Shown here: in pieces, positions 1 to 61,830 of the stretch
Numbering within the stretch: position 1 is the first letter of the stretch
Layout: each line of letters begins with the position of its first letter
Source of the DNA: an uncultured Alphaproteobacteria bacterium
Lineage (GTDB): Bacteria > Pseudomonadota > Alphaproteobacteria > RF32 > CAG-239
Length of the DNA: 64,000 bases
NCBI GenBank assembly: GCA_944391315.1
Contig: CALXTD010000004.1
Span: forward strand, 3,973-67,972
Direction of reading: 5' to 3'
The notes under the pieces: generated by a model
What the model was told of the DNA's origin: nothing
Database searches by the model: none
The model's input: only the letters and a program-made list of their open reading frames with translations
Program-made: the position numbers and the translations under genes

Positions 1-1583
1 TGGCTGTGGCTGGTACATCTGAAGGTGTGCTGATGGTTGAGTCTGAGGCTCAGGAATTGTCTGAAGAAACCATGCTTGGCGCCGTTATGTTCGGATTTGA
101 AAACTTCCAGCCGGTTATTGCCATGATTAACGAAATGGTTAAAGAAGCCGGAAAGCCGCGTTGGGAAATGCCGAAATTTCCGCCGGAGTTTGATGAACTC
201 TATAACAAACTGGAAAAAGGCTTTATCTCTAAGTTTGAAGAAGCTTTCAAAGAAACCGATAAATTGAAACGTGGTGAACTCGTTGCTCAGGCTTCTGAAG
301 AATTTAAGGCAACCCTTGATCCGGAAAATGAGTTTGACCAAAAGTTTGCTCAAGACGCTATTGAAAAATTGATGCACAAAGTTGTTCGCGAAAAAGTTTT
401 GACAACCGGTAAACGTATTGACGGTCGTGATACCAAAACTGTTCGTCCGATTTGGTGCGAAGTTGATGTTTTGCCGATGGCTCATGGTTCAGCTATCTTT
501 ACTCGTGGCGAAACTCAGGCTTTGGTTGTTACAACTTTGGGTACGGGCGAAGATGCTCAAATTGTTGACGGTTTGATGGAAGAATATAAAGAAGACTTTA
601 TGCTGAACTATAACTTCCCGCCGTTCTCGGTTGGTGAATGTGGTCGTATCGGTAGCCCCGGACGTCGTGAAATCGGTCACGGAAAATTGGCTTGGCGTGC
701 TATTCACCCGATGATGCCGAAAAATAAAGATACATTTCCTTATACTGTTCGCGTTGTTTCTGAAATTTTGGAATCAAACGGTTCTTCTTCAATGGCAACG
801 GTTTGCGGAACAACCATGTCTTTGATGTCTGCCGGTGTGCCAATGGCTAAACCGGTAGCCGGTATTGCTATGGGCTTGATTAAGGAAGAAGATGGTCGTG
901 TGGCCGTTTTGACCGATATTCTCGGTGATGAAGACCACCTCGGCGATATGGACTTTAAGGTTGCCGGTACAAAAGACGGTGTTACCGCTTTGCAGATGGA
1001 TATTAAAATCACATCAATCACCAAAGATATTATGAAAACCGCTTTGGCTCAGGCTCATGAAGGTCGTATCCATATTTTGGGTGAGATGGCAAAGGCTATT
1101 TCTGAACCGCGTCCTCATGTTTCGGACAAAGCGCCGCGTATTGTTGCAATTAAGATTCCGGTTGATAAAATTCGTGAAGTTATCGGTTCAGGCGGTAAAG
1201 TTATTCGTGAAATTACCGAAAAAACGCACTGCAAAATTGATATCAGCGACGATGGTGTTATCAAAATTGCTTCGCTCAAAAAAGAAGACGGTGATGCTGC
1301 TCTTGAATGGATTACCGGTATTGTTGCTGAGCCGGAAGAAGGCAAAATCTATCATGGTGTTATTACCAAGATTATGGATTTTGGTGCTTTTGTTCGTTTT
1401 CTCGGAACAACCGAAGGTTTGGTTCACATTTCCGAAGTCAAGAATGAGCGCATTGCTTCCGTTTCCGACTTCTACAAAGAAGGTGACTCAATTTGGGTAA
1501 AATGTCTTGGCACGGACAATCGTGGCAAGGTTAAGCTTTCCGCAAAGAGAGTTAATCAGGAGACAGGGGAAGACCTCGAATAA
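1..1583 (+). CDS. pnp: Polyribonucleotide nucleotidyltransferase (PNPase), C-terminal ~525 aa; N-terminus lies upstream of the window
   Basis: Frame open to window edge (track ORF 6..1583); RNase PH motifs TRGETQALV and [13 protein letters not shown] motif [11 protein letters not shown]1 domain [15 protein letters not shown]. Confidence 0.95.
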
Positions 1584-2001
1584 AAAAGTTCGTATAATGG
1601 TCGATTAGTGCGTTGTCTGCGGGTCAAAAGTGTCCTCACGTACTACTCTGTACGCTGCGGTACTTTTGCCCTTGACGCCTACTACTCGACTCATTCTCCG
1701 AACTTTTTGAAAAGTCATCTAGAGGCATTTTACGCTGTCTCGAAAAATTCATGTACTACTTTGTACACTAAAATTTTTCTCTCAGCTAGAAATGCCTCTA
1801 TCTGTACTATTATCCCCAGTTTTAAGTCGTAGAAAAGCTCGTATAACGGGCAACTAATACAGATTTAGCTGGTCTCCGACATCCTCACGTACTACTCTGT
1901 ACGCTGCGGTGTCGTCGCCCTAAAATCTTATTATTTGCCTCGTTTTCCAAACTTTTACAAAGTTTGTATAGCGTGCAACTAATACAGTGTTATCAAGCTG
2001 G
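1584..2001 (+). repeat. Array of long imperfect-palindrome units (A 1584-1708, B 1709-1823, C 1824-1956, half unit 1957-2001) starting right after the pnp stop codon
   Basis: Each unit folds on itself around loop GTACTACT(C/T)TGTAC; termini AAAAG(T/C)TCGTATAA.. and ..TTCTCCGA(A/C)CTTTT; units A and B recur at 60522-60775. Confidence 0.85.
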
Positions 2002-2009
2002 CAAATATT

Positions 2010-2582
2010 CTACAAATGTTGTTTTTGGCCGATGAGGTTGGAATAAGCGGCCATGCCTTTTTCCAGCAAAGTCGGCAGGGTTTCGCTTATCATATCAATC
2101 TCAGCAAAAATGGTTTCTTTATCTGCTTTTGAAAAGCCGCCTAAAACATAGTTTACAACTTCTTCGCCGTGTCCTTGTGGGTGGCCGACACCAATGCGGA
2201 TGCGGTTGTAATTCGGCGTAATTGCGGCATCAATGGATTTGAGCCCGTTATGTCCGCCGGCGCCACCACCAAGTTTGGCTTTGAGCTTGCCAACAGGTAA
2301 GTCCATGTCGTCATGGATAACCACGATATTTTGCGGCAAAATCTTATAAAAAGAAGCGGCTTTAACGACAGAATTGCCGGACAGATTCATAAAAGTTTGT
2401 GGTTTTAGCAAATAAACTTTTTCATTGCCGATTTTTCCTTCGGCAATGAGGCCGTCAAATTTGTTTTTAAACGTTCCGAACGCATAGTTTTCATGCAGAG
2501 CGTCGGCCGCCATAAATCCGACATTGTGGCGGGTGGCTGAATATTCTGCTCCGGGGTTTCCTAAACCGACAATCAAAAACAT
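2010..2582 (-). CDS. pth: Peptidyl-tRNA hydrolase
   Basis: 190 aa; N-terminal signature LIVGLGNPGAEYSATRHNVGF. Confidence 0.95.
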   Translation of the reverse strand: MFLIVGLGNPGAEYSATRHNVGFMAADALHENYAFGTFKNKFDGLIAEGKIGNEKVYLLKPQTFMNLSGNSVVKAASFYKILPQNIVVIHDDMDLPVGKLKAKLGGGAGGHNGLKSIDAAITPNYNRIRIGVGHPQGHGEEVVNYVLGGFSKADKETIFAEIDMISETLPTLLEKGMAAYSNLIGQKQHL

Positions 2583-2595
2583 ATTTTTTTACCTT

Positions 2596-2623
2596 CAAAA
2601 AAAACGGGAGCTAAACTCCCGTT
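2596..2623 (-). terminator. Hairpin plus T-run between rplY and pth (possible partial terminator)
   Basis: Minus strand reads ACGGGAG-TTTAG-CTCCCGT followed by TTTTTTTT. Confidence 0.5.
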
Positions 2624-2693
2624 CTATGAGCAATTTATCATCGCAAAGCCCATCCGAGAGAAGCATAGTGGACGACTTTCACGATGAAGAGAC

Positions 2694-2984
2694 TTACTTT
2701 CTGAGAAAATCGACGTGAATAGCTCTGTCGCTAACCGGATGGAATTGAACATCCTGACATTTAACGGCATAGTTTTTGCCGTCAACGTTAACGTCAATAT
2801 CAAAGCTGTATAAGCCAGCCATATCCAAAGCTTTTTCAACTTGAACAGGGTCAAGACTAATCATGACCGGAGCTTCTTTTCCACCATAAATTACGGCAGG
2901 AATACGGCCCTCACGACGACATGCGCGAGCTGCCCCCTTACCTGCTGTTTCACGCTTTTTAGCATTAAAAATTAAATCAGCCAT
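2694..2984 (-). CDS. rplY: 50S ribosomal protein L25, short form (96 aa)
   Basis: N-terminus KKRETAGKGAARACRREGRIPAVIYGG typical of L25; sits upstream of pth as in many bacteria. Confidence 0.85.
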   Translation of the reverse strand: MADLIFNAKKRETAGKGAARACRREGRIPAVIYGGKEAPVMISLDPVQVEKALDMAGLYSFDIDVNVDGKNYAVKCQDVQFHPVSDRAIHVDFLRK

Positions 2985-45977: not shown

Positions 45978-46688
45978 TTATTCGTAGCCGTATAACTCTT
46001 TTCCGTGCTCTTTTAGCCAGCGTTCTCCTTGTTCATAATCCGGACAAAGCTTGGCGACGCACTGCCAAAAGCTGCCCGAATGATTTTGATGTTTGAGGTG
46101 GGCCACCTCGTGTACCATTAGGTAGTTGATAACAAAGTCCGGGGCTAAGGATATGCGCCAATTGTAGTTCAAATTGTTTAGGCTTGAGCAACTTCCCCAG
46201 CGCGACTTGGTGTCTTTTATGGTGATATCATTTATTTCCTCGCCCAATTTCTTGGCGTATTTTTTTGAGCGTTTGTAAAATTCGTCTTTGGCCTTTTTTT
46301 TAATGAAGTCTTTAATGCGGCGATGCATGAATTCTTCTTCGCCAGAGACAAGGAGGTTTTCTCCTTCTATTTTGACGCCTAAGCGTCTTTCCGGAGCATG
46401 TTTTATTTCAAGGGCTTTGCCAAACAGGCTTATTTTTTCACCATTAAAAAACAAGCGTCGTTCGGGGAGCTTTTGCAGGGTTGTTTTTACCCATTCTTCA
46501 TGATTTTTGATAAATTCAAAGGCTTTTTTTTGACTGCAATAGCGCGGAAGTGTCAGGACAACAATTCTTTCCTTGCTGTCTATTCTCAAGGTTAGTTTTT
46601 TGGCTCGGGCTGACTTGTTGACCTTTAGCGGAAAGTCAAATTCTTGCTCGAGGTTATAGGTCTTGCCAGTCAATAATGTAATTTTCAT
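45978..46688 (-). CDS. YgjP-like zinc metallopeptidase (DUF45/M48 superfamily)
   Basis: HExxH in LMVHEVAHLKHQNHS; N-terminal FPLKVNKSARAKKLTLRI typical of YgjP. Confidence 0.8.
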   Translation of the reverse strand: MKITLLTGKTYNLEQEFDFPLKVNKSARAKKLTLRIDSKERIVVLTLPRYCSQKKAFEFIKNHEEWVKTTLQKLPERRLFFNGEKISLFGKALEIKHAPERRLGVKIEGENLLVSGEEEFMHRRIKDFIKKKAKDEFYKRSKKYAKKLGEEINDITIKDTKSRWGSCSSLNNLNYNWRISLAPDFVINYLMVHEVAHLKHQNHSGSFWQCVAKLCPDYEQGERWLKEHGKELYGYE

Positions 46689-47166
46689 AGTCTTCTATTC
46701 CTGTTTCCGAAACCGTGTTGCGGTTGCGAATCGACATTTGTGCCTCATGAACGGTATCTGCTCGTCCGGTTAGCAGTGGGTGCCAGTCAGGGAGAGGGTG
46801 ACCGTTGTCTAACAGCCAATAGGCGCAGGTCTTGGGCAACCACCGCGGTTTTTCGCGAATCGCCGCAAGGTCAATGTCTCGGCAGTCAGAGACTTTTTCA
46901 AAGCGGTGTTCGTAGATTTTGCAGAGGCAGTTTTGGCAATCTAAAAAGCGGCAGCGGGTGTTGGTGAACTTGATTTTTCCCTTAATTTCGATTTTGTTCA
47001 AGCAGCATTTGCCGCAGCCGTCACAGAGAAGCTCCCATTCTTCTTTGCTCATGTCTTCGAGTTTTTTCTTTTCCCAAAAGCGGGTGGCAATCAGCTTTTG
47101 ATTGTTGAAACGGGTTTGCGGCGAAAAAGCCTCTTCTTCAAGCGGGTAGTCTTTGTTGTTTGCCAT
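46654..47166 (-). CDS. ycgN: YcgN (UPF0260) family Cys-cluster protein, long paralog (170 aa)
   Basis: FWEKKKLEDMSKEEWELLCDGCGKCCLNK..TCAYWLL..G..LPDWHPLLTG..IDWQDL parallels E. coli YcgN as I recall it. Confidence 0.8.
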   Translation of the reverse strand: MANNKDYPLEEEAFSPQTRFNNQKLIATRFWEKKKLEDMSKEEWELLCDGCGKCCLNKIEIKGKIKFTNTRCRFLDCQNCLCKIYEHRFEKVSDCRDIDLAAIREKPRWLPKTCAYWLLDNGHPLPDWHPLLTGRADTVHEAQMSIRNRNTVSETGIEDYENYIIDWQDL

Positions 47167-47558
47167 TATAGGTCATCCCAATCAACAATATGGTCTTCAA
47201 GCTCGTTTTCAGAGACTTCCGTTTCAGATATGCAGCGGCCTTTGATGCTGCTGAAAGGTGCAGGTTCACGCCCTTCGGCAAGGCGGCGATAGGCACAACT
47301 ATCCGGCATCCAGCTGATGTTTTTGATATTGTCTTTGGTGAGTTTTAAACATTCAGGGACAAGCTCACAGCGGTTTTCGTATACAGAGCAACGTCCATGC
47401 TCTTGGTCATAATATTTGCAGACAATGTCGGTATAAAAGATTTCTTCCGTTTCATCGTCTTGGAGTTTTAGCAAGCAGCATTTGCCGCAGTGGGTACAAA
47501 TGTTTTCCCATTCTTTTTCGGTATAGTCTTCAAGTTTTTTGGACAAGGTCTTTCTCAC
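47166..47558 (-). CDS. YcgN (UPF0260) family Cys-cluster protein, short paralog (130 aa)
   Basis: EKEWENICTHCGKCCLLK..SCAYRRLAEG..VDWDDL; stop overlaps next start (TAATG). Confidence 0.75.
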   Translation of the reverse strand: MRKTLSKKLEDYTEKEWENICTHCGKCCLLKLQDDETEEIFYTDIVCKYYDQEHGRCSVYENRCELVPECLKLTKDNIKNISWMPDSCAYRRLAEGREPAPFSSIKGRCISETEVSENELEDHIVDWDDL

Positions 47559-58092: not shown

Positions 58093-60519
58093 ATGATGTC
58101 AGCACTAAAGAGAATCGGTTCCGCAGTCTTGACGCTTTTTGCGGTTTTGGCTGTTGGTCTTTCTCAAGCTTATGCTTCGGAAATTGATTTAAAAGTGCCG
58201 AGCCTTGATGTCGGATATACGCTTTTTGGTTTTAGTGTTACCGGAAGCCAAATCCTCATGTATGGTATCGGTATTTGTATCTTGGGTATGATTTTTGGGC
58301 TTTATGAGTTTTATAAAATTAAAGCTATTCCGGCTCACAAGTCGATGCTCAATGTTTCAAACACAATTTATGAAACTTGCAAAACCTATATGAAACAACA
58401 GTCCAAACTCTTAGTCCTTTTGGAATTGTTTATTGCGGCTTGCATTTTCTATTATTTCTATTATCTTAACAACACTCCGATGTCGAAGGTTTTGACCATT
58501 TTGATGTGGTCGGTTTTTGGTATTCTCGGCTCCTTCACCGTGGCTTGGTTCGGTATGCGCATTAATACTTATGCCAACTCTCGTACCGCCTTTCTGTCTT
58601 TGCAAGGAAAAGCTTATCCGGTTATGAGCCTGCCGCTGCGTTCGGGTATGTCTATCGGTGTTCTTTTAATCTGCGTTGAGCTGATTATGATGATTATGAT
58701 CTTGCTCTATGTTCCGAGAGAAAGTGCCGGTGCTTGCTTTGTCGGTTTTGCTATCGGTGAATCACTCGGTGCTGCCGCTTTGCGTATCTGCGGCGGTATC
58801 TTTACCAAAATCGCTGATATCGGTGCCGACTTGATGAAGATTATTTTCAAAATTGATGAAGATGATGCTCGCAACCCTGGTGTGATTGCTGACTGTACCG
58901 GTGATAATGCCGGTGACTCGGTTGGCCCAACCGCCGATGGTTTTGAAACATACGGTGTGACCGGTGTGGCTCTTATCAGCTTTATCGTTCTTGGTGCCGG
59001 TATGATGTATGCTCCGAACGGTGACCTTGTTTTGATGTCTAATGGTATTGATATCCAAGCTCGCTTAATCGTTTGGATTTTTGCTATGCGCGTTTTGATG
59101 ATTTTGACCTCGCTCGTTTCTTATTGGTTGAACGGTGTGTTGTCAAAAGGTCTTTACGGCTCTCAGAAAATCTTTGACTTTGAAAAACCGCTGACCAGTT
59201 TGATTTGGTTGACCTCAATCATCTCTATCTTGGTTACCTTCGGTGTTTCTTATCTGATGATTGGACCGATGGGTGCTGATTTGTGGTGGAAGCTTTCGGT
59301 TATCATTTCTTGCGGTACTTTGGCTGCAGCTTTGATTCCGGAATTTACCAAAATCTTTACCTCACCAAAGTCAAAACATGTTCAGGAAATTGTTAATTCT
59401 AGCCGCGAAGCCGGTGCTTCTTTGAACATTATTTCCGGTATTGTTTCCGGTAACTTCTCAGCCTTTTGGCAGGGTATCGTTATGGTCGCTTTGATGGCTA
59501 TCGCTTATGTTACCGCTCGTGAAGGTCTTGATGCTTATATGGTTTATCCCAGCATCTTTGCCTTTGGTTTGGTGGCTTTTGGTATGCTCGGAATGGGGCC
59601 GGTCAATATCGCTGTCGATAGCTATGGACCGGTGGCCGATAATGCTCAATCGGTTTTCGAACTTTCTCAAATCGAAAACATCAGAGGTATTAATAAAGAA
59701 ATTGAAAAAGATTTCGGCTTTAAACCTGATTTTGAAAACGGTAAACACTTCCTTGAAGCCAATGACGGTGCCGGAAATACCTTTAAAGCAACCGCTAAAC
59801 CGGTGCTTATCGGTACGGCTGTTATCGGTGCTGCAACCATGATTTTCTCAATCATTCTGTTGCTTAACTTGAAATTGTCGCTTTTGGCTCCGGAAGTTTT
59901 GTTCGGTATCATTCTCGGCGGTGCGGTTATTTATTGGTTCTCCGGTGCATCTATGCAGGCGGTTTCTACCGGTGCTTATCGCGCGGTCGACTTTATTAAA
60001 AAGCACATTAAGCTTAATACCAAAAAAGCCGCTTCGGTTGAAGACAGCAAAGAAGTTGTTCGTATCTGCACTCTCTATGCGCAGAAAGGTATGCTCAACA
60101 TCTTTATCGCTATCTTCTCATTCACTTTGGCGTTTGCTTGCTTTGATCCGAACTTGTTTGCCAGCTATTTGATTTCAATTGCTGTCTTTGGTTTGTTCCA
60201 AGCACTTTATATGGCTAATGCCGGTGGTGCATGGGATAATGCTAAAAAAGTTGTTGAAGTTGACCTTGGCGAAAAAGGTACGGATTTGCATGCGGCCGCT
60301 GTTGTCGGTGATACGGTTGGTGATCCTTATAAAGACACCTCATCCGTTGCCCTCAACCCGATTATCAAATTTACAACTTTGTTCGGTCTGTTGGCGGTTG
60401 AAATTGCCGTTTCAGCTCCGCGTCATGTATCTTTGATTCTCGGTGCGGTCTTTATGGTAATTGCCTTAATCTTCGTATGGCGTTCGTTCTATGCTATGAG
60501 GATTAATGTAAACGAATAA
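58093..60519 (+). CDS. hppA: Membrane-bound proton-translocating pyrophosphatase, divergent, 808 aa
   Basis: DIGADL..DDARNPGVIADCTGDNAGDSVGPTADGFE, GNTFKATAKP, GGAWDNAKK, VVGDTVGDPYKDTSS; extra N-terminal signal-like segment. Confidence 0.9.
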   Translation: MMSALKRIGSAVLTLFAVLAVGLSQAYASEIDLKVPSLDVGYTLFGFSVTGSQILMYGIGICILGMIFGLYEFYKIKAIPAHKSMLNVSNTIYETCKTYMKQQSKLLVLLELFIAACIFYYFYYLNNTPMSKVLTILMWSVFGILGSFTVAWFGMRINTYANSRTAFLSLQGKAYPVMSLPLRSGMSIGVLLICVELIMMIMILLYVPRESAGACFVGFAIGESLGAAALRICGGIFTKIADIGADLMKIIFKIDEDDARNPGVIADCTGDNAGDSVGPTADGFETYGVTGVALISFIVLGAGMMYAPNGDLVLMSNGIDIQARLIVWIFAMRVLMILTSLVSYWLNGVLSKGLYGSQKIFDFEKPLTSLIWLTSIISILVTFGVSYLMIGPMGADLWWKLSVIISCGTLAAALIPEFTKIFTSPKSKHVQEIVNSSREAGASLNIISGIVSGNFSAFWQGIVMVALMAIAYVTAREGLDAYMVYPSIFAFGLVAFGMLGMGPVNIAVDSYGPVADNAQSVFELSQIENIRGINKEIEKDFGFKPDFENGKHFLEANDGAGNTFKATAKPVLIGTAVIGAATMIFSIILLLNLKLSLLAPEVLFGIILGGAVIYWFSGASMQAVSTGAYRAVDFIKKHIKLNTKKAASVEDSKEVVRICTLYAQKGMLNIFIAIFSFTLAFACFDPNLFASYLISIAVFGLFQALYMANAGGAWDNAKKVVEVDLGEKGTDLHAAAVVGDTVGDPYKDTSSVALNPIIKFTTLFGLLAVEIAVSAPRHVSLILGAVFMVIALIFVWRSFYAMRINVNE

Positions 60520-60521
60520 TT

Positions 60522-60800
60522 AAAAGGTCGTATAACGGTCGATTAGTGCGTTGTCTGCGGGGCAAAAGTGTCCTCACGTACTACTCTGTACGCTCCGGTA
60601 CTTTTGCCCTTGACGCCTACTACTCGACTCGTTCTCCGACCTTTTTGTAAAGCTCGTATAACAGCACATCTAGAGGCATTTTACGCTGTTTCGAAAAATT
60701 CATGTACTACTCTGTACACTAAAATTTTTCTCTCAGCTAGAAATGCCTCTATCTGTAACTGTTCTCCGAGCTTTTGTAAATCTCGGATAACGGGCAAAGG
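60522..60800 (+). repeat. Second array of the palindromic units (A 60522-60646, B 60647-60775, first ~25 nt of a C-type unit 60776-60800)
   Basis: Same order and orientation as 1584-2001; A copies differ at 6 of ~123 positions, B cores at 2 of ~93. Confidence 0.88.
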
Positions 60801-60899: not shown

Positions 60900-60975
60900 A
60901 GGGGTATAGCTCAGTTGGTAGAGCATCGGTCTCCAAAACCGAGTGTCGTGAGTTCGAATCTTACTGCCCCTGCCA
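60900..60975 (+). tRNA. tRNA-Trp (anticodon CCA)
   Basis: Hand-folded: acceptor AGGGGTA/TGCCCCT, D-arm GCTC..GAGC, anticodon stem TCGGT/ACCGA with loop CTCCAAA, T-arm GTGAG-TTCGAAT-CTTAC, encoded GCCA; classic position upstream of secE-nusG. Confidence 0.93.
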
Positions 60976-61012
60976 ATAAAAGAACCGTCCGAAAAGACGG
61001 TTTTTTTATTGG
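60973..61012 (+). terminator. Terminator of tRNA-Trp (17-bp stem containing the T-run)
   Basis: CCAATAAAAGAACCGTC-CGAAAA-GACGGTTTTTTTATTGG. Confidence 0.75.
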
Positions 61013-61017
61013 CATTT

Positions 61018-61162
61018 AGGGGTAGTTGATGAGAACTCACGAGAAGGTGAGTTCGACGCCAAACGAAAGGCGGGCGGGAGCACGCCGGTGAGCGAAAGCG
61101 AATGAGTGCGAAGGAACAAGCATTGCGAAGCAATGTCGCGGACAATCTTACTGCCCCTGCCA
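61018..61162 (+). other. tRNA-Trp-derived tRNA-like unit 1 (acceptor plus T-arm retained, 87-nt GC-rich insert in T-loop, GCCA end)
   Basis: AGGGGTA + 22 nt + GTGAGTTCGA + 87 nt + AATCTTACTGCCCCTGCCA; identical strings to tRNA-Trp acceptor and T-arm. Confidence 0.5.
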
Positions 61163-61199
61163 ATAAAAGAACCGTCCGAAAAGACGGTTTTTTTATTGG
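61160..61199 (+). terminator. Second copy of the terminator hairpin
   Basis: Identical to 60973-61012, shifted by 187 nt. Confidence 0.7.
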
Positions 61200-61204
61200 C
61201 ATTT

Positions 61205-61348
61205 AGGGGTAGTTGATGAGAACTCACGAGAAGGTGAGTTCGACGCCAAACGAAAGGCGGGCGGGAGCACGCCGGTGAGCGAAAGCGAATGAGTGCGAAG
61301 GAACAAGCATTGCGAAGCAATGTCGCGGACAATCTTACTGCCCTGCCA
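61205..61348 (+). other. tRNA-like unit 2, 3' acceptor strand decayed (TGCCCT instead of TGCCCCT)
   Basis: Same as unit 1 until the last 15 nt. Confidence 0.45.
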
Positions 61349-61382: not shown

Positions 61383-61396
61383 TAAAATCTTGTCTA

Positions 61397-61718
61397 ATGG
61401 TTTTCTAGAGCCGTTTGCTCAGGTCGAAAGTGTCCTCACGTACTCGTTTGTACGCTGTGGTACTTTCGCCTTTCAAACAACTCTATAAATTCCATTATCC
61501 GAGATTTTTTAAGTGCAGAATGGCTTTCTAGAGCCGTTTGCTCAGGTCGAAAGTGTCCTCACGTACTTCTTTGTACGCTGCGGTACTTTCGCCTTTCAAA
61601 CAACTCTATAAATTCCTTTATCCGAGATTTTTTAAGTGCAGAATGGCTTTCTAGAGCCGTTTGCTCAGGTCGAAAGTGTCCTCACGTACTGTTTGTACGT
61701 TGAGGACTTTTGTTTTTT
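61397..61718 (+). repeat. 123-bp tandem D-type palindromic units (61397-61519, 61520-61642, truncated 61643-61718)
   Basis: Share core CGAAAGTGTCCTCACGTACT..GTACGCTG(C/T)GGTACTTTCG with A-type units; outer arms TCTAGAGCCGTTTG / CAAACAACTCTATA are unit-specific. Confidence 0.88.
61678..61718 (+). terminator. Near-perfect hairpin plus T-run formed by the truncated third D unit
   Basis: GTCCTCACGTAC-TGTTT-GTACGTTGAGGAC followed by TTTTGTTTTTT. Confidence 0.6.
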
Positions 61719-61801: not shown

Positions 61802-61830
61802 TTGACATATCTAAAATAATTTACTATCTT
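61802..61830 (+). promoter_or_regulatory. Sigma70-like promoter candidate for secE-nusG
   Basis: TTGACA, 17-nt spacer, TATCTT. Confidence 0.5.

Follow-up and report, generated by a model that had tools for sequence, protein, structure and literature searches.

Arrays of covarying hairpin repeats with an RPE-1-like tip at gene ends in an uncultured gut alphaproteobacterium

The stretch analysed here, which we call the window, comprises 64,000 nucleotides of contig CALXTD010000004.1 from an uncultured Alphaproteobacteria bacterium (assembly GCA_944391315.1); its G+C content is ∼41%, its GC skew is positive along the whole plus strand, and contigs with an identical NusG stem from gut metagenomes. 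It carries three head-to-tail arrays of imperfect palindromic units of ∼123-126 nt, every one of them on the plus strand: one behind pnp, one behind hppA, which is our main subject, and a third at 61384-61712, between tRNA-Trp and secE and upstream of the latter, which the initial annotation of this DNA had not described. The genes, arrays and units are the following:

3-1583, plus strand: 3' part of pnp (polynucleotide phosphorylase), an open reading frame (ORF) with its stop TAA at 1581-1583; orthologues match the RNase_PH, PNPase, KH and S1 Pfam families.
1584-1992, plus strand: array 1, beginning at the base following the pnp stop and ending 17 nt from the stop of the convergent pth.
1584-1710, plus strand: unit A1, a full hairpin of ∼125 nt with outer stem AAAAGTTCG/CGAACTTTT, A-type interior and canonical tip; fold -54 kcal/mol, z -8.5; covariance-model match 142 bits.
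1716-1806, plus strand: core of unit B1, with the variant tip CATGTAC-N6-GTACAC, from repeat family D5, alignment and fold; its left outer stem is deleted and a degenerate right outer part reaches ∼1830.
1833-1959, plus strand: unit C1, a full unit with C-type interior, from its fold and a covariance-model match of 127 bits.
1959-1992, plus strand: terminal 5'-partial unit of array 1, left arm only, from repeat family D12 and strain comparison; it adjoins the pth stop and is found in all strains examined.
2010-2582, minus strand: pth, convergent with pnp.
58093-60519, plus strand: hppA (H+-pyrophosphatase), stop TAA at 60517-60519; the orthologue in L001 and L002 matches Pfam H_PPase.
60522-60797, plus strand: array 2, beginning 2 nt past the hppA stop.
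60522-60648, plus strand: unit A2, which has the interior of A1 within outer parts specific to its locus (stem AAAAGGTCG/CGACCTTTT; TATAACGG/CTCGTTC in the C-G state); fold -58.3 kcal/mol, z -9.9; covariance-model match 133 bits.
60649-60775, plus strand: unit B2, B-type and complete, whose own outer stem is AAAGCTCG/CGAGCTTT; fold -50.3 kcal/mol, z -9.5.
60777-60797, plus strand: end of array 2, AAATCTCGGATAACGGGCAA, a C-type left outer end joined to the terminal partial unit (three-way alignment).
60900-60975, plus strand: tRNA-Trp (CCA), between arrays 2 and 3.
61384-61510 and 61507-61633, plus strand: units D1 and D2, D-type with a 123-nt period, from repeat families D2/D4, fold and covariance-model match.
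61630-61712, plus strand: unit D3, truncated to the left arm, a converted tip and a T-run; covariance-model match 38 bits.

Each unit is a ∼125-bp imperfect palindrome built in three layers: an A-tract/T-tract outer stem of the form AAAA-NNN-YG ... CR-NNN-TTTT, followed in the consensus by TTTTT; inner stem modules, of which there are several interchangeable types; and a tip, CCTCACGTAC-N6-GTACGCTGCGG, which is invariant, asymmetric and bulged. The tip is the most conserved part; the most variable part is the terminal 4-5 bp beside the A/T tracts, and the most variable columns are the 3-4 bp of the outer-stem core. Sense-strand stop codons are built in at +14, +25 and +36, one per reading frame, and within the arrays the units are contiguous, with no ORFs between them. 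The consensus has the hairpin and the TTTTT, and a simple terminator scan does not call the long units. The truncated D3, which is followed downstream by a promoter-like site (61802-61830, promoter scan) and by secE, resembles a terminator. The tip pattern occurs seven times in the window, against 0.33 occurrences expected by chance. At the Rfam gathering threshold two tRNAs alone pass in the window, and Rfam E-value searches over both array regions returned nothing near the gathering score of any family; A2+B2 had no BLAST match in collections of plasmids or phages, and a full-text literature search with the tip sequence gave unrelated primer matches only.

Every window unit folds as one long imperfect hairpin of ∼55 bp, with RNA free energies of -36 to -58 kcal/mol (z -5 to -10) that are about equal on either strand. 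The initial annotation had suggested that this hairpin is under structural constraint, and the alignment of 52 distinct units from gut Alphaproteobacteria metagenome-assembled genomes (MAGs) and the window bears this out: 94.5% of its cells are paired, against 39-45% in slid controls, where the pairing partner is shifted by 1-3 columns. RNAalifold predicts 45 pairs, 32 of them with double changes, and a count of compensatory changes across the copies, of the kind proposed at the outset, gives 401 double-change cells against 57-88 in the slid controls, with one-sided changes in 27. Neither strand displays a wobble signature, G.T being found in 42 cells and A.C in 32. The excess of double changes over chance extends to close relatives, taken as minimum-spanning-tree edges with 1-15 differences, where 220 differences include 23 compensated doubles (16 of them in the outermost stem) and ∼4.9 column pairs would be expected to be hit twice by chance. 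Copying of one arm from the other, which had been offered as a second explanation, stands for one clear case, the tip of D3, in which a nearly perfect palindrome of 12-13 bp, GTCCTCACGTAC...GTACGTTGAGGAC, with a T-run after it, has taken the place of the asymmetric canonical form, and which we clearly read as arm-to-arm correction; as a general rule it does not stand, for reasons given below.

The pair of composite copies from which the initial annotation had started is as it described: A and B recur in the same order and orientation as A1-B1 behind pnp and A2-B2 behind hppA, the A copies differ at six positions, and four of these make up two differences that preserve Watson-Crick pairs. The first is G-T-TCG/CGA-A-C against G-G-TCG/CGA-C-C and the second TATAA-T-GG/CTC-A-TTC against TATAA-C-GG/CTC-G-TTC; of the remaining two, GGGTCAAAAG against GGGGCAAAAG turns a T.C mismatch into a G-C pair, and GCTGCGG against GCTCCGG falls within the tip. 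The B cores (91 nt) differ at two positions (repeat family D5, 98%), and B2 indeed holds a third pair, C...G, at the first paired position. Compared over all units, the site of one paired difference is in the outermost stem, which is hypervariable, and that of the other is a dimorphic position in the next helix (T-A 30, C-G 17). As we read the alignments, the paired differences are not two point mutations each with later compensation; they fall at complementary positions because the outer parts stay with their locus around a shared A interior.

What separates the two arrays is better seen by comparison between strains. The partial further unit noted after B2, about 20 nt long at 60777-60797, had been taken for the truncated end of a duplicated A-B-C composite of at least 370 bp, a reading that fails in view of a one-unit deletion in the window and of unit shuffling at pnp. 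At the hppA locus, the sister strain L002, with an identical NusG, has A, B, a full C-type unit and a partial unit, from which the window differs by the clean loss of one unit between the repeated starts TCGGATAACGG|GCAA; we read 60777-60797 as the scar of this deletion. Six contigs whose Pth proteins are identical have pnp-locus spacers of ∼340 to 800 nt, with the unit orders E-b-C, B-E-b-C, E-B-E-b-C and F-E-(helix-turn-helix, HTH, gene), and in each of them the array closes with the same terminal partial unit. Among strains, the outer sequence of the first unit behind pnp is constant, AAAAAAGTTCG-TATAATGGTCGATTA ... CTCGACTCATTCTCCGAACTTTTT, while the interior it encloses is of A type in the window and of E type in the others; B1 shares its right flank with the B unit that these strains have at pnp, not with B2. 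By all appearances in these alignments, a common pool of unit types supplied both the pnp and the hppA array. Stem modules are combined as mosaics, yet symmetrically: in L021 an A-type outer module goes with a C-type middle module on both arms. A whole unit also recurs, one in L043 matching A1, outer stem included, with two differences behind a different gene in another genome. Symmetric conserved blocks are the sole sites at which recombination between unit types can resolve, and much of the symmetry therefore needs no special mechanism.

Several arrays of other strains hold unrelated DNA. In L003, L004 and L005 (e.g., L004 723-1934), ∼1.2 kb of foreign DNA replaces D2 (window ∼61507-61633) and encodes a protein of 209-237 aa with a sub-threshold match to Pfam Acb1 (anti-CBASS; 17 bits, cut-off 27); the region upstream of D1 differs there too and is without tRNA-Trp. 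Some strains and species have, inside the pnp array, a module of ∼470 bp (L084 ∼255-770 of the spacer as extracted, L073 4970-5460) that starts directly after a truncated left outer stem, AAAAGTTCGT, and codes on the opposite strand for an Xre-type HTH protein of 80 aa. In L073 5590-5820, a hybrid unit joins a C-type left arm and tip (…CCTCACGTACTAGTTTGTAC) to an A-type right arm across ∼115 nt of unrelated DNA, which contains a small terminator-like hairpin of its own; the break is inside the tip. The array-inserted DNA of other strains encodes ORFs of 209, 237 and 187 aa besides the HTH protein and no transposase, and the domain matches of these proteins are the Xre-type HTH and the sub-threshold Acb1 only. 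The tRNA-Trp/secE interval, as compared here, appears to be an integration hot spot. In the window it contains a perfect 187-nt tandem duplication (60957-61143 and 61144-61330, within 60957-61348), each copy of which opens with the last 19 nt of tRNA-Trp, aatcttactgcccctgcca, and also holds the tRNA terminator hairpin and a GC-rich stretch; a slightly damaged third 19-mer follows at 61331. These repeats look like att-type remnants of integration and excision at the tRNA gene.

The arrays have a characteristic position relative to genes. In 40 of the 54 first-unit records, a long co-oriented open frame stops between -11 and +36 nt from the unit start, its TAA frequently running straight into the A-tract of the unit; otherwise the frame enters the unit and ends at one of the built-in stops, +14, +25 or +36. 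The upstream gene's ordinary terminator usually comes after the array. Related loci with and without units are informative here: the site 3' of rplY is empty in L077, L078 and L081 and filled in L076, L079 and L080, and that 3' of ychF is empty in L077 and L078 and filled in L079 and L080. Empty sites have ordinary short GC-rich terminators; at filled sites a unit begins at the stop codon, and the ordinary terminator may come after it. In the filled rplY sites, the left outer arm is made of the last Lys codon, TAA and G (AAAATAAG), and the right outer arm, CTTATTTT, is an inverted copy of it. No direct target duplication was found between filled and empty rplY, the sole site that is clearly readable. 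We considered whether the outer stem is a pre-existing terminator invaded by the element and rejected this as a general rule, as the terminators of empty sites differ and lie further downstream and as one whole unit recurs, with the same outer stem, behind another gene in a second genome. Onion-like growth, through nested insertion alone, was likewise rejected, the same outer module being found with different middle modules. At the empty ychF site of L078 (4275-4305), the terminator is a palindrome centred on GTAC, AAAAAAGGGCATGTACATGCCCTTTTTT, reminiscent of CATGTAC...GTACATG, the variant tips found in units of types B and E. Arrays also lie at the boundary of an inversion: rplY-pth (window 2010-2984) is inverted relative to L076, L079 and L080, where the order is pnp-rplY-pth-ychF with all genes co-directional, and pnp and pth are convergent in the window species.

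The orientation of the units follows GC skew. That skew is positive on the unit-sense strand in 41/41 loci of the gut lineage, and the gene to which an array is attached is, in 15 of 15 convergent pairs, the one encoded by the G-rich strand. A bias in gene strand is no explanation for this polarity, since minus- and plus-strand genes are present in roughly equal numbers in the window and units on the plus strand only. The two strands of the hairpin are not equivalent either. Stem mismatches are Y.Y in 85 cells and R.R in 11, and in the unpaired interior columns of the sense strand pyrimidines number 1108 and purines 366; with DNA parameters the antisense hairpin is the stabler one in 52/52 units, by 5.9 kcal/mol on average, and with RNA parameters it is so in 39 units and the sense hairpin in 12.

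The tip connects these units to a known family. RPE-1, the Rickettsia palindromic element, was reportedly described by Ogata et al. in 2000 and 2002, and at the protein level we identified it with NCBIfam TIGR01045 ('palindromic element RPE1 domain', cut-off 30 bits). A scan of species-representative genomes with a tip pattern of 22 specified bases returned 65 loci, the majority in gut Alphaproteobacteria MAGs from human, deer and other hosts, together with ten Rickettsia loci, Rickettsiales MAGs and single loci in Solimonas terrae, a Nitrospiria MAG and a Peribacteria MAG. In Rickettsia tamurae L032 and L061, the tip lies inside an opposite-strand ORF, where it encodes ...ERSTAAYKEVREDAST..., and these ORFs match TIGR01045 at 76 and 84 bits; in the Rickettsia locus L054 no ORF of at least 60 aa covers the element. 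Because Rickettsia ORFs over tip-bearing copies match this profile, we take the tip to be the RPE-1 core. A covariance model built from gut units, R1, scores the Rickettsia RPE-1 copies at 47-60 bits over the full length of the model, and the further copies in Solimonas at 48 bits, in Nitrospiria at 66 bits, in the Rickettsiales MAGs L042, L063 and L074 at 54, 48 and 78 bits, and in the Alphaproteobacteria MAG L059 at 40 bits. Full-length hairpins form on folding in Solimonas, Nitrospiria, L074, L059 and Rickettsia L032, that of Solimonas being a GC-rich 135-nt hairpin straight after a stop codon; the Peribacteria match consists of the tip alone, without a fold (z -0.5), and we treated it as uninformative. 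R1 finds 108 matches in 462 kb of loci, copy counts that are lower bounds, since the model misses B-type units and D2 in the window.

Three further observations concern individual sequences. Read from the minus strand, each canonical tip (e.g., window 1634-1661) contains AGUACGUGAGGA, which agrees at 11 of 12 positions with the sarcin-ricin loop consensus, which we take to be AGUACGAGAGGA; this likeness is probably a coincidence, since GUACG is base-paired in the tip. An 'uncultured Firmicutes' MAG contig carries a unit that, flanks included, is near-identical to that of an Alphaproteobacteria MAG (L026 against L075, one difference in 130 nt), and is likely a binning contaminant. Away from the arrays, an 81-nt direct repeat (46987-47067 and 47460-47540, 73% identity) lies in the adjacent minus-strand ORFs 46654-47166 and 47166-47558, which are probably tandem paralogues.

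We give roughly even chances to the interpretation that array 2 is a DNA-level, replication-polar selfish hairpin repeat of the RPE/REP kind. What leads us to place its activity at the level of DNA is the covariation, which is Watson-Crick only, the tie of orientation to skew and not to genes in general, the weaker hairpin on the strand exposed as lagging-strand template, and the fast turnover of arrays between strains. The active form would be a single-stranded DNA hairpin arising during replication, and the repeat would spread, or get copied between sites, as a selfish sequence, not as an evolved RNA gene, with the invariant tip as a recognition or nucleation site for a factor. Arm complementarity could be kept in several ways: by recombination resolving in the symmetric conserved blocks, by quasi-palindrome template switching in which one arm corrects the other, and by the loss of non-folding copies, which would stop propagating. 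The A interior at pnp may have been copied from the hppA array, or both may be of recent common source, the outer parts having been left in place. As a side effect, the units would be transcribed into the 3' untranslated regions (UTRs) of pnp and hppA, where they probably act as hairpin barriers or terminators, likely as a consequence of their position.

Several points weigh against a selfish DNA repeat. No enzyme or autonomous parent element was found, although no genome-wide search was made, and mobility is deduced from distribution only. Replication direction is taken from the GC skew of loci of 2-8 kb and of one 64-kb window, and the Rickettsia copies and other outlying lineages have no GC-skew polarity. 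Arm-to-arm copying is not a general rule, because conserved mismatches and bulges stay at fixed positions, and selection for folding is not absolute, because incomplete units (b fragments and terminal partial units) persist across strains. Finally, the position between stop and terminator, the co-orientation with the upstream gene and the T-tract are equally compatible with an RNA-level element of the 3' UTR.

Such a functional RNA element is the main rival as primary cause, and we regard it as a serious possibility, if a distinctly less probable one. The sense hairpin after the stop codon would serve as a terminator, as a barrier to 3' exonucleases or as a modulator of translation termination, like stop-proximal REPs, and selection at the RNA level would maintain the pairs. 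This would account for the location of the units between stop and ordinary terminator, co-oriented with the upstream gene, for the TTTTT that follows the A-tract/T-tract outer stem, for the resemblance of D3 to a working terminator and for the massive covariation. RNA pairing, however, would be expected to pass through one-sided (G-U) states, which are almost absent, G.T being about as common as A.C, and it is the sense strand that is less stable and has pyrimidine-rich loops. Nor would an RNA function readily explain why orientation tracks GC skew in 41/41 loci, with no arrays behind genes of the other strand (about half of all genes), why arrays differ among strains otherwise identical in protein, or why the tip in Rickettsia lies inside ORFs and is read from the opposite strand.

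A classical MITE (a miniature transposable element with inverted repeats), whose terminal inverted repeats are recognised by a transposase that pastes the unit into new sites, is improbable. Size, palindromic form and dispersed copies agree with it, as does the unit shared by L043 and A1, which includes the outer stem and stands behind different genes; but, contrary to what a MITE would show, the termini are the most variable part and the tip the most conserved, no direct target-site duplication distinguishes the filled from the empty rplY site, and the plasmid and phage collections hold no related sequence. Least probable is the account of the initial annotation, a composite A-B-C duplicated 59 kb away, truncated and then altered by compensated point substitutions, with which the A-then-B order at both loci and the two paired differences accord, but against which stand the unit-level shuffling among strains, the flank peculiar to the pnp-locus B, the swap of the first pnp interior inside a constant outer stem and the explanation of the 'truncation' as a one-unit deletion.

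To return to the selfish hairpin repeat, a wider and more speculative proposal, which we think rather unlikely to hold in its entirety, is that RPE-1 is the Rickettsia branch of a replication-polar, mobile superfamily of single-stranded DNA hairpins. Its members would share an invariant bulged GTAC-N6-GTAC tip recognised by an enzyme, would occur in gut Alphaproteobacteria, at least one gammaproteobacterium and a Nitrospiria MAG, would carry exchangeable symmetric arm cassettes regenerated by intrastrand templating and would form strain-variable arrays at the stops of leading-strand genes. To our knowledge, RPEs have been regarded as a curiosity of Rickettsia, and we know of no account of the mechanism by which they spread. 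The RPE-1 tip is here conserved base for base in unrelated, non-intracellular bacteria, atop different arms, and the skew polarity, the confinement between stop and terminator, the arrays and their reshuffling between strains point to a DNA-level mechanism coupled to replication. If the proposal is true, these bacteria would offer a tractable, non-intracellular system for the 25-year-old question of how RPEs move, with the tip as bait for the recognising factor and the polarity as an assay. For annotation, the arrays matter since they create spurious ORFs and break assemblies at gene ends, and they may be of use as strain markers in metagenomes.

Among known repeat systems, the REPs and BIMEs of Enterobacteria and Pseudomonas are similar in being palindromic repeats at gene 3' ends, in arrays, for which propagation through single-stranded DNA hairpins linked to replication has been proposed, as have effects on mRNA stability and, near stop codons, on translation. 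REPs, however, are 20-40 bp long with a GTAG or CGTC tag (PMC3733652), often alternate in orientation within BIMEs and lie near RAYT transposase genes, whereas the gut units are ∼125 bp long, all head-to-tail, and have no GTAG or CGTC tag at their ends; no RAYT was identified for them, RAYT association not being part of the analysis. With ERIC/IRU, Correia (NEMIS), SPRITE and Bacillus bcr1 they share the form of transcribed intergenic imperfect palindromes of 100-170 bp; SPRITE resembles a rho-independent terminator, and bcr1 displays compensatory changes (PMC3184786). These families have conserved termini and several have target duplications, in contrast to the variable termini and the tip conserved across phyla of the gut units, and the Rfam searches found no sequence similarity to any of them.

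Integron attC sites, such as the 123-126-bp repeats of Vibrio cholerae, are imperfect palindromes of similar length in strain-variable arrays and recombine as folded single strands with extrahelical bases, which we count as a likeness. What is conserved in attC is the hairpin base, with its R''/R' boxes, and ORF cassettes separate the sites, whereas the gut units are conserved at the tip and stand back to back, free of intervening ORFs. Inspected by eye, the two ends of a unit, GTATAAYGG ... CRTTCTCC, depart from the consensus of R'' (RYYYAAC) and from that of R' (GTTRRRY), and no integrase is evident beside the arrays, among the neighbours pnp/pth and hppA/tRNA-Trp/secE, no integrase search having been run. 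Integron attC and type III antitoxin arrays were rejected on anatomy. As for MITEs, the outer stem is an inverted repeat, but its 3-4-bp core makes up the most variable columns.

The closest comparison is with RPE-1 itself. RPEs figure in the literature as selfish DNA that belongs to Rickettsia or to the Rickettsiales (PMC1779305, PMC10969869, PMC3733652). The apical motif of ∼24-28 nt, including the bulge, is identical in RPE-1 and gut units, both form long imperfect hairpins of ∼125-135 nt, the window units being hairpins within the 100-150 bp used as a criterion for the family, and there is some similarity in the arms, e.g., ATTAGTGCGTT against ATTTGTGCGTC. The arms are otherwise unrelated, and by sequence the gut units fall outside TIGR01045: four of the five translated window units have no match, and D2 reaches 13 bits (cut-off 30) over profile positions 18-29, which correspond to the tip only. 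RPE-1 inserts in-frame and is read from the opposite strand, whereas the gut units are intergenic and, with stop codons in every frame of the window units, are not coding palindromes. The Rickettsia copies examined are single and not polar, whereas the gut units form tandem arrays that are polar with GC skew; and the host range given for RPE-1 is Rickettsia or Rickettsiales, whereas units of the window type are found in gut Alphaproteobacteria MAGs, and full hairpins bearing the tip are present in Solimonas terrae and a Nitrospiria MAG too. We therefore classify the window units, by tip and architecture, as relatives of RPE-1 and not as strict members, and read the family as a non-coding, intergenic, array-forming branch of an RPE-1 superfamily outside the Rickettsiales.

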